A stretch of DNA of 64,000 nucleotides from an uncultured Candidatus Saccharibacteria bacterium (GTDB taxonomy: Bacteria; Patescibacteriota; Minisyncoccia; Phycocordibacterales; UBA9973), in NCBI GenBank assembly GCA_964625065.1, contig CAZUZL010000001.1, positions 40,132 through 104,131 on the forward strand, in the 5' to 3' direction. The position numbers and the translations under genes are program-made. Below, one piece after another: positions 6,530 to 59,168 of this stretch (position 1 is the stretch's first letter; every line of letters starts with the position of its first letter). The notes beneath the pieces are model-generated. The model was not told the DNA's origin and did not search any database. It saw only the letters and a program-made list of their open reading frames with translations.

Positions 6530-6560
6530 AAAAAGTCAGGTATAGCCTGACTTTTTTTTA
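6530..6560. terminator. Bidirectional intrinsic terminator
   Basis: aaaaa-GTCAGGTATAGCCTGAC-tttttttta between convergent genes. Confidence 0.65.
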
Positions 6561-8003
6561 TTTTATAATCCCTATAACCCCATTCCCAAACAACATCACC
6601 GCCATTACCCCATACATACCCAACATTGCCCACAGTGGCAATGGGTAGTTTAGTACACCAAAAGGAACAGAGGCGAATAACATAATAACCCACAACACAA
6701 ACGTTAATAATATAGAAAGTGGAAATGCAAATAAAATAGATAAACTCGGTATAAAAAAACACAACACCAATAAAAATGTTAACCCCATAACCAGTGGCAT
6801 AAGTGGCAGTATTAATACATTGGCCGGTATTGAAACCAAAGACATAGCCCCCATAGTAAATAGTATCAGTGGCAGTACAGCAATATTTGTACCCACTGTT
6901 GTGGCAACCACGTCGCGTATACCAAACTTATCTGTTACCCATAAAAACTTGTGTAGTATTTTGGGTGTTATATATATCAGCCCTATAGTAGCTAAAACTG
7001 AAAGTTGAAATGAAACGTCGTACAGTATTGTAAATGGGTTCATTATACCCATTGCAATAATTGTTAATACCAACACCCTGCCTATATATGTTTTTCTACC
7101 GACAAGTTTTGCCAATATAACAATACCACCCATTATGCCCGCACGTATGGCAGTGGTAGAAGCACCGGTTAATATTACAAATAAAACTATACCAAATATT
7201 GAAACTATCCATGCTACTGTAACAGAAAATATTGCACCCAATGTTGCCAACATGGCTTCGACAACAATGGTAATGTTGTAGCCCGACAGGGCAATAATGT
7301 GTATAGTTCCGGAACGTACAAACTGGTCGCGCAAACCTGTTGTTAACCAGTCGCGCGAACCAACTAATATGCCACGAGCTAAGCCAGACTGCGGTTCGTG
7401 CAAATTGTTGTTTATTTGGTTTTCTATTTTATTCTTTAGTACTGCTAAACGTGCAGTAACATTCCACCTACCTGCTGGTGTGGTAGACAACACTTTTGGT
7501 TTGTCTAATGTTACATATACAAAGTCTTTTTTAAGATACGAAACATAGTCAAATACAGTGTCGTTAGAACCAGTAAAGTTTTCTGGGTATTGAAGTACGC
7601 CAGAAATTTGTACATGTTCACCCACCAACAAATTCCCGCTGTTTATTTTTACTAATACTCGAAATCTTTCACCGACGGGTTGTACTAAAACAGTTTGTAT
7701 ATTATTTTTACCTTCAGCAGTTACTACCCTGCCTGATAATGTTACATTTTTATTTATTGCATCCGTGTACAGAACAGGTATTTTTGGCATGCGCATATAC
7801 GAAACACCATAGCCAAGTAAAATAGACACCACTAAAACGAACGTTAAACCAAAAACTTTTTTAGAAAACTTACCTAAAAACAAAATACAAACCAGACAAA
7901 TAAAAACACCGGCAACTAGGCCGTATGTGTTCTGTTGTGCTGTAAATAAAATAATACCAACTACTGCGCCGAAACTTGTTCCATAAAACAAATTGTCATC
8001 CAT
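6558..8003 (-). CDS. comEC: DNA internalization competence protein ComEC/Rec2 (DUF4131 + competence channel domain, no lactamase domain)
   Basis: Polytopic membrane protein with ComEC competence-domain motifs (…TAIRAGIMGGIVILAKL…). The ORF-track GTG start at 8027 (MALPISNGM) lies inside a repeat; the ATG at 8001-8003 (MDDNLFYG) is preferred. Confidence 0.8.
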   Translation of the reverse strand: MDDNLFYGTSFGAVVGIILFTAQQNTYGLVAGVFICLVCILFLGKFSKKVFGLTFVLVVSILLGYGVSYMRMPKIPVLYTDAINKNVTLSGRVVTAEGKNNIQTVLVQPVGERFRVLVKINSGNLLVGEHVQISGVLQYPENFTGSNDTVFDYVSYLKKDFVYVTLDKPKVLSTTPAGRWNVTARLAVLKNKIENQINNNLHEPQSGLARGILVGSRDWLTTGLRDQFVRSGTIHIIALSGYNITIVVEAMLATLGAIFSVTVAWIVSIFGIVLFVILTGASTTAIRAGIMGGIVILAKLVGRKTYIGRVLVLTIIAMGIMNPFTILYDVSFQLSVLATIGLIYITPKILHKFLWVTDKFGIRDVVATTVGTNIAVLPLILFTMGAMSLVSIPANVLILPLMPLVMGLTFLLVLCFFIPSLSILFAFPLSILLTFVLWVIMLFASVPFGVLNYPLPLWAMLGMYGVMAVMLFGNGVIGIIK

Positions 8004-8191
8004 CCCGTTAGAGATAGGAAGTGCCACATTACAATATATGGAACTTCCTATAATTAGATAATTTATAATATTTCGACCATACTACTAGACCCTACAGGCA
8101 CTTCCGTAATATATTTGATTATATTTACATATTAACATAATTTATTTCTTTATTATATTAAGACAAAATAACATCTGTTATCTCAACGGGA
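8001..8191. mobile_element. 191-bp TIR-bounded repeat element (copy A); its terminal CAT is the comEC start codon
   Basis: Left arm catcccgttagagataggaagtgccac (8001-8027), inner partner ggcacttccgta (8097-8108), shared acatattaacata core, right arm atctcaacggga (8180-8191). Confidence 0.6.
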
Positions 8192-8197
8192 GGCAAA

Positions 8198-8761
8198 CTA
8201 CATAGGGGGCAACCCCTTGAAGAATTCTTTATAATTTTCTTTAGTGCCACGAAACAGTGGTGTGTTGTCTTTGTCTGCAAAACTGGTTGCAATAACATCG
8301 GCACGTTCGTTTAGTAGTACACCTGAATGCCCTGCAACTTTTTTCGTGTGTAAATTTTTACCAAAACTACGCACCAATACCATTAGTGGTTGCCATAGTT
8401 CCTGGTTTAGAACTGGTTTTTTATTTGCAGTTTTCCAACCGTTTTTCTCCCACCCTGCAACCCAAGACCCGATACCGCCTAACACATATGCAGAATCAGT
8501 ATGTACAGTAACAACCACTGTTACACTACGCCCCGCCTTTTTAACTTCTTCCTGGACTGCGCGCAAACTAGCTATAACACCCATCAGTTCCATTCTATTA
8601 TTCGTTGTATGGGCGTCGTGGCCACCTATTTCATAGACATAGTCATGTTCTGCCAATATGCCTGCGTCAAAGCCTATAACAGCCCCGTAGCCCCCTGGAC
8701 CAGGGTTACCGCGCGAAGAACCGTCTGTATATATAGATATATGTTTTTCCTGACTATTCAT
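8198..8761 (-). CDS. rnhA: Ribonuclease HI
   Basis: IYTDGSSRGNPGPGGYG...NNRMELMGVI...HSGVLLNERAD are canonical RNase H1 motifs. Confidence 0.85.
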   Translation of the reverse strand: MNSQEKHISIYTDGSSRGNPGPGGYGAVIGFDAGILAEHDYVYEIGGHDAHTTNNRMELMGVIASLRAVQEEVKKAGRSVTVVVTVHTDSAYVLGGIGSWVAGWEKNGWKTANKKPVLNQELWQPLMVLVRSFGKNLHTKKVAGHSGVLLNERADVIATSFADKDNTPLFRGTKENYKEFFKGLPPM

Positions 8762-47001: not shown

Positions 47002-47409
47002 CTATAATATCAAATCTTCGTACATTACTACCCTACCGGTTTTGTTTTCCATATCTAGGTACGCACATGCCAAGTCTATATATACCTTTGTTTTATAAGA
47101 CACTTTTCGTTCTAGCAGGTATGTTTCTATGGTGCGTAGCATTTTCCGTGCCTTCATAGGGTGCATGTTTTGGGCTGGGTCGTAACGCATGTATTTAACT
47201 TGAGCCAAATCCCCCACTTTTATGGACTTAACTTCTATAAAATGTATATTGTCGGGTCCATTTGTTACACGAGTAACAATGTCTATCTCGCCCCACTTTT
47301 TAGTGTAGTTGCGTTCTAGTATTTCATGGCCGTGTTTCATGAGGAACGTACAAACTACGTCCTCTCCTATTTCTCCAGTCTTTTGTTTATCTGAAGTAAA
47401 AACCTTCAT
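47002..47409 (-). CDS. YraN-family (UPF0102) predicted endonuclease
   Basis: GEDVVCTFLMKHGHEILERNYTKKWGEIDIVTR...IHFIEVKS; start at MKVFTSD; the ORF-track extension MALPISNGM is repeat-derived. Confidence 0.7.
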   Translation of the reverse strand: MKVFTSDKQKTGEIGEDVVCTFLMKHGHEILERNYTKKWGEIDIVTRVTNGPDNIHFIEVKSIKVGDLAQVKYMRYDPAQNMHPMKARKMLRTIETYLLERKVSYKTKVYIDLACAYLDMENKTGRVVMYEDLIL

Positions 47410-47597
47410 CCCGTTAGAGATAGGAAGTGCCACTACATAACATAGAAAACATTTACTATTCTCGATTTTAATTATAATCTATTCGACTAATTACATATCT
47501 AGCACTTCCGTAGATTAATTCAGTATATATACATATTAACATATTACGAGTGCATGAAACATATAAGCAATTAAGCATCTATAATCTCTAACGGGAT
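47407..47597. mobile_element. 191-bp TIR-bounded repeat element (copy B); its terminal CAT is the yraN-like start codon
   Basis: The 27 nt catcccgttagagataggaagtgccac are identical to copy A; inner partner agcacttccgta (47501-47513); tacatattaacata core; right arm atctctaacgggat (47584-47597). Confidence 0.6.
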
Positions 47598-47989
47598 TCA
47601 CTACTTAACTTCAAAATGTTTCATGAATAACACAAATGTCCGTTTCAGTACCAAAATGATCGAATTCCACTAAAGTGTGCCACGTGAAACATCTTTATGG
47701 CTATATCTAACTAATATAATATGTATTCTAATGTGTATTTTATAAATACCCTTATTTTTATAGGTATTTTAGATTTTTGGGGTATAGTATGACATTTTTT
47801 TGACATGTCTGTATACTGTCTTTTATAAACAATATACACAGACTTATCCACACTTATACACAGTTTTCTATATAAAATATAGGTTTTAATGAATATAAAA
47901 GACGATTCTTACAAGAATTGTGTCGCGCAATGTCCTTTGAAGCGCGACCCGTCAAAAAAGTCTTTAATAAAAAGGGCAGAAAAAAGAGA

Positions 47990-48420
47990 GGGGGGCAAAA
48001 GGGGAATCGGTTGCGATTTTATAACAACAGGGAATCGCCACCTACCGTGGCGAGTGCTTTGAACAAAAAGGGGAATCGGCCACGGTTTGCTGGTATTAGA
48101 AATGCGGAATGGGGATCGGCTTCGCCTCTCACCTCGTCAGTCACTCGGTTCGGGCTAGCCACCGCCTCGCACCCACACTGCTGTGTGGGACCCGCTCCGG
48201 CGTCCGATTCAGAATAACAGGGAATCGCCACCTACCGTGGCGGGTGCTTTTAGTAACAATAGGGAATCGGCCACGATTTGCTGACATTTTTCATCACAAG
48301 TTCGAAAAATACCTAGCAATCCCGGCCCGGACTCGGCGACAAGCATTCCTTGTTACACAGGAATCTTGTATACCGCCTCCGTCTTCCGATTCCCCTATTA
48401 CGCATAAAATAAAATCGCCC
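47990..48420. repeat. GC-rich non-coding block of direct repeats derived from the 3' end of tRNA-Gly(GCC)
   Basis: A composite ~70-bp unit occurs twice (48027-48094 and 48217-48288); core gggaatcgg occurs at least 7 times in gene orientation and once inverted (48395-48413); hairpins cgccac-ctacc-gtggcg and cccacac-tgctg-tgtggg. Confidence 0.55.
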
Positions 48421-54299: not shown

Positions 54300-54355
54300 A
54301 ATAAAAGAACCTCGTTAAAACGAGGTTCTTTTATTTTCTATGGTATAATACACAT

Positions 54356-57917: not shown

Positions 57918-59168
57918 TTAGTCTTTACTGTTTACGTCACCAGTAGAACCTTTTATTGCAAATGAGTTCTTTGCACCGCGGATTTCAAAGTGTAAATGTG
58001 GTCCTGTCGAGTGTCCTGTAGAACCAACATACGCTATTGTTTGGCCCTTGGTTACAGACTGACCAACTGTAACTATGTTAGATGTGTTGTGTGCGTAAAG
58101 TGTTTGTGTGCCGTTAGGGTGTTTAATAGCTAGATATGTACCATAACCACCACCGTATGTACCACGAGAGTCGGCAATAACTACACCGTCTGCTGCTGCC
58201 ATAACAGGTGTACCTTTAGGTGCAGAAATGTCGATACCATTAAATGCGTGTAGACCCTGAGTAACAATACCACCACGAACAGGGAACATGTAGTAACCAC
58301 TGTATTCTGCTGCATTAAAGCCCCAAGTCTTTTCACCCCGTGCACTGCGCATAACAGCGTCGCCAGATTTTGGACCTGATAGATCAAGTTCGCCGGTAGA
58401 TTTAAGTTTATAGACACCAGTACCTGTGTATTTACCCGTTTGAGATTTAGTAGTAGTACCTTTTGCTGTTTTATTTGCAGGCTGGGCGACTGTTTGTTGT
58501 TCACCGTTAGGTATTATTATAACTGTGCCAGGTTCTACAACAGTGTCTACTGTTATACCGTTAAATAGTTCTATGTCAGAGGTGTCTGCACTATATTTTT
58601 TAGCTATAGACTTTATGGTGTCGCCCTTTTTAAATGTATATCGTAGACCAGTAACAGGTAGTATTGTTAGCATTTGGCCTTCCTTAAGGGTGGGGTTTTG
58701 ACTTAGGTTGTTAGCCCAGATAATGGTGTTTGGTGTAACGTCGTATAGGTTTGCCACTGTTTTAATAGTGTCGCCTTTTTTAACGGTATATAAACTAATC
58801 TGGTCTGTATCTGGAACGTACTGTTCTACATCTAAGGCAGTGCCCATAGGGCCCACATCTGTAGACAAAACACCGTCGTCTGACAACATAGTAGTGTCAA
58901 CATCGTCGCCGCCCAAAACAGTAGAAACAACAGTTGATGGGTCGGGTAAAACTAGGGTTTGAGAGTTTTTGGTTATTTCAACCTTGCCTTGGGCGTCTGC
59001 TATTTTGCCTAGAAAGCTAAAAATACCCGCGTGTACGTAGGTCGGAACAAATATGGTTAGAGTAGCTAAAGCAATAAAAGCTTTAGAAATAAGGATTTTT
59101 TGAACAAAGCGGACCAAAAGGGTGGGGGGTACGGTTTCGCCGGTTGTTTGTTTATTATTAGGTAACAT
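57918..59168 (-). CDS. LysM-domain M23-family peptidoglycan endopeptidase
   Basis: Two LysM repeats (YTVKKGDTIKTVA; YTFKKGDTIKSIA) and C-terminal GIDISAPKGTPV...HLHFEI. Confidence 0.8.
   Translation of the reverse strand: MLPNNKQTTGETVPPTLLVRFVQKILISKAFIALATLTIFVPTYVHAGIFSFLGKIADAQGKVEITKNSQTLVLPDPSTVVSTVLGGDDVDTTMLSDDGVLSTDVGPMGTALDVEQYVPDTDQISLYTVKKGDTIKTVANLYDVTPNTIIWANNLSQNPTLKEGQMLTILPVTGLRYTFKKGDTIKSIAKKYSADTSDIELFNGITVDTVVEPGTVIIIPNGEQQTVAQPANKTAKGTTTKSQTGKYTGTGVYKLKSTGELDLSGPKSGDAVMRSARGEKTWGFNAAEYSGYYMFPVRGGIVTQGLHAFNGIDISAPKGTPVMAAADGVVIADSRGTYGGGYGTYLAIKHPNGTQTLYAHNTSNIVTVGQSVTKGQTIAYVGSTGHSTGPHLHFEIRGAKNSFAIKGSTGDVNSKD

Follow-up and report, generated by a model that had tools for sequence, protein, structure and literature searches.

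We analysed a stretch of 64,000 nucleotides from an uncultured Candidatus Saccharibacteria bacterium (contig CAZUZL010000001.1), referred to here as the window, and focused on the 191 bp that lie between the competence gene comEC and the RNase H gene upstream of it. This 191-bp stretch is a real, repeated insertion bounded by inverted repeats. The element at this place, copy 1 (8003..8191, minus strand, 189 bp), is non-coding and has the orientation of comEC. It is very probably a non-autonomous, internally deleted copy, resembling a miniature inverted-repeat transposable element (MITE), of a very small mobile cassette of the Patescibacteria, or Candidate Phyla Radiation (CPR), that encodes a GIY-YIG nuclease of 95 amino acids (aa). 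The element belongs to a dispersed family, stands where close relatives have empty sites, rebuilds the ATG of comEC, derives from a coding form with the same ends, and shares with the other copies two helices that co-vary.

Insertion at the start codons of comEC and yraN

The gene-proximal terminal inverted repeat (TIR) of copy 1 lies at 8003-8015 (13 nt, TCCCGTTAGAGAT on the plus strand and AUCUCUAACGGGA on the mRNA), and corresponds to the codons LSLTG of the full-length open reading frame (ORF). The gene-distal TIR lies at 8180-8191 (12 nt, ATCTC-AACGGGA), and has lost one base of the family consensus. Apart from this missing base, the two TIRs are complementary, and the orthologous copy L002 keeps the perfect 13-mer. 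The inner helix (P2) comprises an arm adjoining the proximal TIR (8017-8025, GGAAGTGCC) and a distant arm (8097-8105, GGCACTTCC), 73 nt from the distal TIR, which are complementary at 9/9 positions. Copy 1 also harbors a copy-specific extra arm at 8036-8051, a local partner of 8014-8029 (16 nt, 88%), and an AT-rich block at 8126-8139 (TACATATTAACATA) that was found again, letter for letter, in copy 2. The TIRs, the nested inner pair, the AT-rich core, and the terminal CAT as comEC start, which an earlier note on this DNA had described, are all present in the sequence.

The comEC ORF (6558..8003, minus strand, 481 aa, PF13567 and PF03772) starts with the ATG that is read as CAT at 8001-8003. 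Only the T at 8003, the A of this ATG, belongs to the element, and the preceding CA (8001-8002) is part of the host repeat that flanks it. The element had been placed at 8001-8191; it is indeed bounded by TIRs, but the element proper is 8003-8191. Its terminal base is the first base of the comEC start codon, and in this sense the element supplies the start, as had been proposed. The public annotation of the identical ComEC protein (P0121, 481 aa) uses the same ATG, so the GTG-initiated extension MALPISNGM is element sequence and not protein, in agreement with the earlier note. On the gene strand, the proximal flanking tetranucleotide (7999-8002) is TGGA, which together with base 8003 gives ATGGA, the start of comEC. 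The distal one (8192-8195) is TGCC, a degraded counterpart of TGGA matching at 2/4 positions. The RNase H ORF (8198..8761, minus strand) has its stop at 8198, and the element region represents the entire gap between the two genes. Within both elements of the window, there was no ORF and no detectable protein similarity.

The gene order PGK-RecJ-RNaseH-ComEC-SOD was kept without the element in two loci (L051 and L053), with ComEC identities of 77% and 79%. At these empty sites, the RNase H stop is followed by 2-3 nt and then by ATGTC (TAGTT|ATGTC and TAATAT|ATGTC). The occupied locus of the window reads TAGTT-TGCC-[189 bp]-TGGA-TGAC; the tight RNase H-comEC junction was widened by 194 nt at insertion. 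An empty yraN site (L062, YraN ortholog with 95% identity), which comes from the same sample as one of the empty comEC sites, reads TATAATGTGGGG|ATGAAG with a single TGAA, and the occupied yraN sites of the window and of a third relative read TGAA|element|TGAA. Since close relatives lack the element at both comEC and yraN with the gene order kept, the element is an insertion. The comparison of orthologous loci, suggested earlier as a check, thus resulted in empty sites for both genes.

For the repeat nature of the sequence, copies were counted in the 64-kb window, in GTDB genomes with an exact 21-mer, and in groundwater metagenomes and viral contigs with a 19-mer. The TIR 13-mer occurs exactly three times in the window. 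Allowing up to two mismatches, four matches were found against 0.65 expected, and 0/100 shuffles reached four; the match at 58434-58446 (ACCCGTTTGAGAT, two mismatches) lies within a coding region without a partner repeat and is probably due to chance. Copy 2 (47409..47596, minus strand, 188 bp) has perfect 13-nt TIRs at 47409-47421 and 47584-47596 and P2 arms at 47423-47430 and 47502-47509. Its flanking repeats, at 47405-47408 (proximal) and 47597-47600 (distal), are both TTCA (TGAA on the gene strand), a duplicated target, and the proximal one plus base 47409 gives ATGAA, the rebuilt start of the yraN/UPF0102 ORF (47002..47409, minus strand, 135 aa, PF02021). Copies 1 and 2 have five blocks in common, with diverged spacers, and copy 2 yields the same spurious MALPISNGM extension.

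The exact 21-mer resulted in six GTDB loci: four in a Candidatus Nomurabacteria (Kiruna) bin, one in a Saccharibacteria-labelled metagenome-assembled genome (MAG), and one in an Omnitrophota MAG. The Saccharibacteria-labelled locus is orthologous to the comEC locus, and the element at comEC is kept in three related genomes (the window, L002, and L004). The element loci at tsf and dprA belong to the Kiruna bin, and neither lies within the window. The 19-mer identified 28 metagenome loci, while the viral contigs gave no matches. The proposal of a miniature, TIR-bounded, non-coding repeat family is therefore supported by the second copy in the window and by further copies in the same species-level lineage and in metagenomes.

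The copies fall into size classes of ~64, 107-126, 187-197, and 277-280 bp. They share a common plan of 4-bp flank, 13-nt TIR, spacer, P2 5' arm, loop, P2 3' arm, one T, 13-nt TIR, and 4-bp flank. The spacer comprises 73-79 nt, except for 13 nt in the 64-nt class and ~3 nt in the long-TIR variants (L001_1657, L019_1048, and L020_9898), and the P2 loop comprises 3-6, 65-77, or 156 nt. As tallied from the flank listings, the 4-bp flanks were identical on both sides in 21 of ~31 elements, and they differed among loci (TGAA, TGGA, TGTA, TGAC, and TGAG). Flanks that are directly repeated yet locus-specific represent a target duplication, not a conserved motif. All seven coding copies were flanked by TGA-N, and the non-coding copies tolerate TGGA and TGTA too. 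One junction (...CGGGA|TGNN) opens a long host ORF in 24/24 miniature copies with T...A ends, and the same ATG geometry was found in the seven full-length copies, judged by called genes. The host genes are unrelated (comEC, yraN, tsf, dprA, glycosyltransferases, greA, and trmH). Across the elements with T...A ends that were examined, the coincidence with the ATG is the universal insertion geometry of the family.

Other members of the family differ in ends, orientation, or arrangement. A subfamily of ~123 nt (L009, L017, L018, L020 3786-3908, L021, L026, and L029) is inverted relative to the host gene in 7/7 cases. A C...G-ended subfamily (CCCCGTTAGAGAT...ATCTCTAACGGGG) comprises L006 6618-6733, from the Omnitrophota MAG, and L012, L016, L033, and L028. 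It has no matching flanking repeats, includes 64-nt minimal forms, and occurs on GC-richer contigs, possibly non-CPR; the copy that was checked (L006) lies 9 nt upstream of an ATG and does not abut it. Tandem or nested insertions were also found. In L007 8021-8340 / L034 721-1189, a 197-nt miniature lies at the borrowed start of a full-length GIY-YIG cassette, which itself lies at a host start, and the junction is GGGA-TTCA-TCCC. In L019 924-1167, two different subfamily members are joined via a single TTCA.

Some further observations concern the surroundings of these sites. A block GAAACGGACATTTGTGTTATTCATGAAACATT with an upstream ATGTTTCACGTG is conserved 5' of yraN in occupied and empty alleles alike (window 47600-47720, L061 1200-1300, and L062 1380-1500). 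The empty yraN allele has a TATAAT 6 nt before the ATG, and this box is lost in the occupied alleles. Between copy 2 and a tRNA-Gly gene, the GC-rich non-coding stretch 47990-48400 contains two 52-nt repeats (48018-48069 and 48208-48259) with the hairpin CGCCAC-CTACC-GTGGCG, and four AAAAGGGGAATCGG-like motifs. It has no Rfam match and may represent either a structured RNA not yet annotated or a further repeat family. The locus L051, from the genome with the empty comEC and yraN sites, harbors at 804-852, within the recJ coding region, a perfect 13-bp inverted repeat (TCCCGTTGGAATT / AATTCCAACGGGA) with the outer bases of the family, 49 nt end to end.

The full-length GIY-YIG form and its miniature copies

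The full-length form was identified in L034 (721-1000), where a 280-bp element is a single ORF of 95 aa, MNPVRD...KRFLSLTG. This ORF matches Pfam PF01541 (GIY-YIG) with E = 4.5e-15 over residues 10-76, and among solved structures, the UPF0213 protein 1ZG2 is the nearest (E = 5.5e-10). A homolog search with the ORF resulted in 2338 proteins, mostly from Patescibacteria. Among the best 120 cluster representatives of these, 95 have 94-95 aa, 113 end with S[LQ]TG, and 85 start with an MNPVRD-like sequence. In a 27-sequence alignment, the candidate catalytic residues Y12, Y14, Y25, R35, H39, and E59 are invariant, and N85 is nearly so.

The full-length element runs from TCCCGTTAGAGAT to ATCTCTAACGGGA, and its TIRs lie inside the ORF, where they encode MNPVRD and SLTG, the conserved ends of the protein. 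The residue at position 2 (N, S, T, or R) varies with the flanking repeat and agrees with what the last two flank bases and the T of the TIR would encode. In 7/7 genomic contexts, the gene has 285-288 nt (stop included) and ends with a TGA that overlaps the ATG of the gene that follows; the named next genes are those for a 67-aa protein, ruvX, transaldolase, a glycosyltransferase, and an AbiEii-family gene. The element proper thus lacks a start codon, a stop codon, and a ribosome-binding site. The start is borrowed (ATGAA|TCCCG...), and the terminal A plus the duplicated TGA gives ATGA (...CGGGA|TGAA), as in the junctions TATTATGAA|TCCCGTTAGAGAT ... ATCTCTAACGGGA|TGAATAC. Every long member found has 277-280 bp and encodes the GIY-YIG protein alone, and among the 63 loci there was no transposase-length element with the same ends.

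When the ~190-nt class was aligned to the coding form, ~90-100 nt were missing from the P2 loop. We built a profile from seven full-length elements and searched the window with nhmmer. As a result, copy 2 matched the profile at model positions 208-280 with E = 1.3e-4. All independent ~190-nt copies share one deletion and lie in one orientation with respect to the host gene, so they probably spread as miniature elements and did not decay separately. The window copies are internal-deletion derivatives that are MITE-like and devoid of coding capacity. The features used to define MITEs are found here: TIRs around a short non-coding sequence, dispersed and polymorphic copies, a target-site duplication, and a coding parent with the same ends.

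Folding, host expression, and competing explanations

Covariation was assessed in a register-fixed alignment of 26 distinct elements, in which the helix arm positions of the full-length genes were fixed by the codon alignment. For the outer helix formed by the TIRs (P1) and P2 together, 96.7% of cells were paired, a fraction that is inflated because the arms of the miniature copies were located partly by complementarity. Both sides were changed in 13/22 pairs, and 0/500 shuffles reached this result; slid controls gave 35-48% pairing. The TIR of L054 has three compensated changes (TCCCGTACGAAAT pairs with ATTTCGTACGGGA), and in L058, ...GAGAA pairs with TTCTC.... Perfect P2 helices of 15 bp are formed by different sequences in L035 (GGAAACGCCTTAAAC with GTTTAAGGCGTTTCC) and L039 (GGAAACGTTTTAATC with GATTAAAACGTTTCC). 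Both helices thus co-vary among the copies, as would be expected under the earlier proposal. The arms lie in the codons for LRKRF/LKQ and RLKRFL, and the compensated changes are therefore synonymous or conservative.

In single-stranded DNA folds of a coding copy and of copy 2, P1 and P2 were present in the minimum-free-energy and centroid structures, with z = -3.75 and -3.84. The conservation of P1 and P2 through compensatory changes suggests that the nuclease recognises the folded single strand. For the comEC leader RNA (z = -4.3), the earlier note had predicted two nested helices before the AUG. The outer helix P1 forms and sequesters 13 nt, whereas the minimum-free-energy fold replaces the distant P2 arm with the local partner (8014-8029 with 8036-8051).

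A Shine-Dalgarno motif precedes only 1/55 long ORFs of the window, and in 12/68 ORFs, the ATG follows the end of a TATAAT-like box at a distance of exactly 6 nt (for instance at 54355, 56335, and 59323 on the plus strand, and many on the minus strand). From the near-absence of Shine-Dalgarno motifs and the box at 6 nt, the genes appear to be expressed as leaderless mRNAs or via stop-start coupling. In such a host, a cassette would be translatable only on an existing start codon, which may explain the targeting of start codons.

These observations suggest the following mechanism. The autonomous 280-bp cassette is found inserted at A|TGNN in host start codons, where 4 bp of the flank are duplicated. 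The original ATG of the host, with its promoter or upstream coupling, would then open the nuclease ORF (ATG AAT CCC GTT ...), while the final A of the element and the duplicated TGA(N) would form ATGA, from which the host gene would be translated by termination-reinitiation. In the conserved fold, P1 pairs the termini, and P2 (9-15 bp) abuts the 3' terminus. The GIY-YIG protein is the putative mobilising enzyme and would act on single-stranded DNA; by analogy with the Ssn nucleases discussed below, it may recognise the folded single strand and cut at the base of P1. Loss of most of the P2 loop gives the ~190-bp form. This form has retained P1, P2, and the spacer of 73-79 nt, and its movement is presumably in trans. 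At the window locus, comEC is most likely still transcribed with RNase H and translated from the read-through mRNA. There, P1 may bring the RNase H UAG (6 nt before the helix) beside the comEC AUG (just after it), or may be melted by terminating ribosomes, so that some coupling would be preserved.

On this basis, the family may represent a class of prokaryotic transposable element that has not been described before, with a 95-aa GIY-YIG (Ssn-like) nuclease as its sole protein and a single-stranded, two-helix fold as the recognised structure. At 280 bp, it would be the smallest known autonomous DNA transposon. We regard this wider proposal as quite possible, though it falls somewhat short of probable.

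Several points weigh against the derivation of copy 1 from such a cassette, or against its mobility. The flanking repeat at comEC is degraded (TGCC vs TGGA), and the inflated pairing fraction was mentioned above. Copy 1 matches the full-length profile over the last 23 nt only (E = 0.05), and its derivation rests on the alignment to copy 2 and other ~190-nt copies. A tblastn search of the 64-kb window resulted in no intact GIY-YIG gene, so that a trans-acting source in this genome is unproven. There is also a strict orientation bias, with the 190-nt type in the gene's sense at 9 independent loci and one 120-nt type inverted in 7/7. To our knowledge, GIY-YIG nucleases are hydrolases with no known strand-transfer activity that would account for integration or for the 4-bp duplication.

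Three other explanations were considered for these data. P1 and P2 could gate the comEC start as a riboswitch, thermosensor, or coupling device, and the element could have been exapted and maintained as a cis-regulatory leader. An unusually stable fold in which P1 sequesters the 13 nt before the AUG would suit this role, as would the extra local hairpin arm gained by copy 1, the retention of the element at comEC in the window, L002, and L004, and the strictly conserved orientation within the subfamily. However, the same module precedes the unrelated genes yraN, tsf, dprA, glycosyltransferase, greA, and others, and close orthologs lack it, their comEC being simply coupled to RNase H. The ends of the parent element already account for the helices, Rfam gave no match, and the spacers diverge freely, with no conserved unpaired core resembling a ligand pocket. 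We therefore consider exaptation improbable. The earlier note had suggested that the element supplies or controls translation initiation; we found no evidence that it evolved for such control, given its presence before yraN, tsf, dprA, and others, and no promoter-like signal above shuffled controls.

The family could also be a conventional Correia/ERIC-style MITE from a DDE-transposase insertion sequence, with the GIY-YIG ORF as cargo or coincidental occupant. All long members, however, have 277-280 bp and encode the GIY-YIG protein alone; the TIRs lie inside the ORF and fix the protein termini across thousands of homologs, and the 63 loci contain no transposase-length element with these ends. 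These results make such an origin very unlikely, even though TIRs, short flanking direct repeats, several size classes, and nested or tandem insertions are MITE hallmarks. The target, TGNN at start codons, is unlike the TA of Correia elements. The Correia-style membership proposed in the earlier note was abandoned, as the repeats differ, the flank duplication is TGNN (4 bp) versus TA, and no integration host factor (IHF) site or DDE parent was seen. In the third explanation, P1 would juxtapose the duplicated AUGAA sites at the RNA level, and the ribosome would shunt or hop across, or the RNA would be cut at the helix base and rejoined. Direct evidence for this is nil. In the window, moreover, the comEC locus no longer has the distal ATG (TTTGCC), and at yraN this ATG has become GTG. 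The stop-start overlap of the full-length form already accounts for host expression. This bypass is thus exceedingly unlikely, despite the identical 4-5 nt at both helix bases (AUGAA ... A|UGAA) with P1 closing the whole element, the difficulty of otherwise translating a 190-nt structured leader without a Shine-Dalgarno site in a leaderless or coupled host, and the analogues known from the bypass cassette of T4 gene 60 and from mitochondrial 'byps'.

A number of known signals were also tried and rejected. A riboswitch or other known RNA was discarded because Rfam gave nothing at gathering or E-value thresholds; near the element, the sole hit below E = 1 was a spurious 13-bit match to a small RNA. 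For an internal sigma-70 promoter, copy 1 has 4 sites versus 2.3±1.6 in shuffles, and copy 2 has none inside; TATAAT-like boxes occur in several 190-nt copies, but their position is not conserved. The resemblance to a T3/T7-like phage promoter (TCTCTAACGGGA vs T3 TCACTAAAGGGA) represents the symmetric TIR, which lies within the ORF at both ends. A sigma-54 promoter was excluded since TGGCAC-N5 stands beside the ATG in the two window copies only, with no TTGC element. The integron attC has a similar core (GTTAGAG/CTCTAAC), but neither the orientation to the genes nor the length agrees with such a site, and the copies are scattered over housekeeping genes. The Haemophilus uptake sequence AAGTGCGGT was found in one copy only.

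Stop-restart through an upstream ORF to the TAA of the proximal repeat was rejected for the window, where the frame closes after 12-21 codons in both copies. The frame set by the distal start codon is open across the element to this TAA, 4 nt before the rebuilt ATG, in L009 and L020 (both with ATG) and in L021 (with CTG), and it is open to the ATGA overlap in L017 and the coding L034. The TAA is also reached in L019a, L019b, and L030, but in a frame that does not begin at a host ATG; it starts at the rebuilt ATG of the neighbouring element in L019a, at ACT in L019b, and at TGG in L030.

If the proposed mechanism holds, it would be a clear case of harmless parasitism, in which the host start codon is borrowed, a rebuilt one is returned, and the translations are coupled, tuned to hosts without Shine-Dalgarno sites. 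If the GIY-YIG protein mobilises the units, another nuclease superfamily would be added to the enzymes driving DNA transposition, with an extreme minimal transposon. For annotation, the copies create false N-terminal extensions such as MALPISNGM, and hundreds of CPR 'hypothetical 95-aa GIY-YIG proteins' would be selfish inserts. At the window locus, the competence gene comEC, formerly tightly coupled to RNase H, now lies behind a structured leader of 190 nt.

Comparison with known systems

Our literature search, which left most subscription journals outside its range, resulted in no description of start-codon-inserting GIY-YIG cassettes and returned the Ssn paper only. The nearest published relative in kind is the Ssn nucleases with their NTS/SRM hairpin repeats. 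The Ssn nucleases are 94-aa GIY-YIG proteins that cut single-stranded DNA beside hairpin repeats flanking their own genes, and their repeat-gene-repeat layout was noted as insertion sequence (IS)-like, with the IS-like nature only hypothesised and Patescibacteria not mentioned (Chenal et al. 2025, PMC11893778). Both systems have a single-domain GIY-YIG protein of ~94-95 aa, a gene bracketed by inverted, hairpin-forming repeats, and many orphan repeats near genes. The cutting specific to single-stranded DNA beside a hairpin fits the co-varying P1 and P2 folds of the present family. In contrast, the repeats described here lie inside the ORF and pair across the whole gene, whereas the Ssn repeats form two local hairpins of ~30 nt. 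The SRM consensus (HGTCWY...) was not evident by eye in the element ends, which were not searched with a formal pattern. Clear duplications of the flanks, empty sites, and insertion at start codons, with both start and stop taken from the host, are found in the present family, and none of them is reported for Ssn.

If our reading is correct, the transposon type described here would also have relatives, domesticated or decayed, in the Ssn/NTS systems of Neisseria, Wolbachia, and Rickettsia. The question raised in the Ssn paper, whether repeat-ssn-repeat units are mobile, becomes testable with the target duplications, empty sites, and co-varying structures supplied here. As a separate observation, comEC and dprA (L003 3085-3152), both competence genes, host the ~190-nt element in this lineage, and the characterised Ssn nuclease is a modulator of natural transformation in Neisseria, which may be a coincidence, as the other host genes are unrelated.

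The Correia elements of Neisseria (CREE) and the ERIC/IRU elements of enterobacteria resemble the miniature copies in being ~100-190 bp, TIR-bounded, non-coding, and located in or next to transcription units. They also form long hairpins in mRNA and can alter the expression of adjacent genes. In Correia elements, the TIRs measure 26 bp, the duplication is TA, and an IHF site and outward promoters are present; no coding parent is known for them. The present family differs from them in its 13-nt TIRs of unrelated sequence, TGNN duplication, obligate ATG position, and origin from a GIY-YIG ORF. ERIC/IRU elements have an enterobacterial consensus of ~127 bp with a conserved central inverted repeat, whereas the host here is, by the record names, a patescibacterium and not an enterobacterium.

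The IS200/IS605 elements, with REP/RAYT and PATE, share with the present family the very small units, abundant non-autonomous repeats, and short target motifs, and their enzyme recognises folded single-stranded hairpin ends, as is proposed here. They use an HUH/Y1 transposase and have neither TIRs nor a target duplication. Here, the predicted enzyme is a GIY-YIG hydrolase, and the family has true inverted repeats and a 4-bp duplication.

The free-standing GIY-YIG homing endonucleases (Seg) and the T4 mobA/gene 60 cassette are likewise selfish GIY-YIG genes that lie between or within host genes, disrupt them minimally, and often overlap with them at the stop and start codons. Homing endonucleases carry an additional domain for DNA binding, have a single long recognition site, and use recombination with homologous flanks to spread. 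The protein described here consists of the catalytic domain alone and scores 21.8 bits against TIGR01453, for which the cut-off is 56. Unlike the homing endonucleases, the present family is found at many unrelated genes with nothing but ATGNN in common, and it harbors TIRs, flanking duplications, and miniature derivatives.

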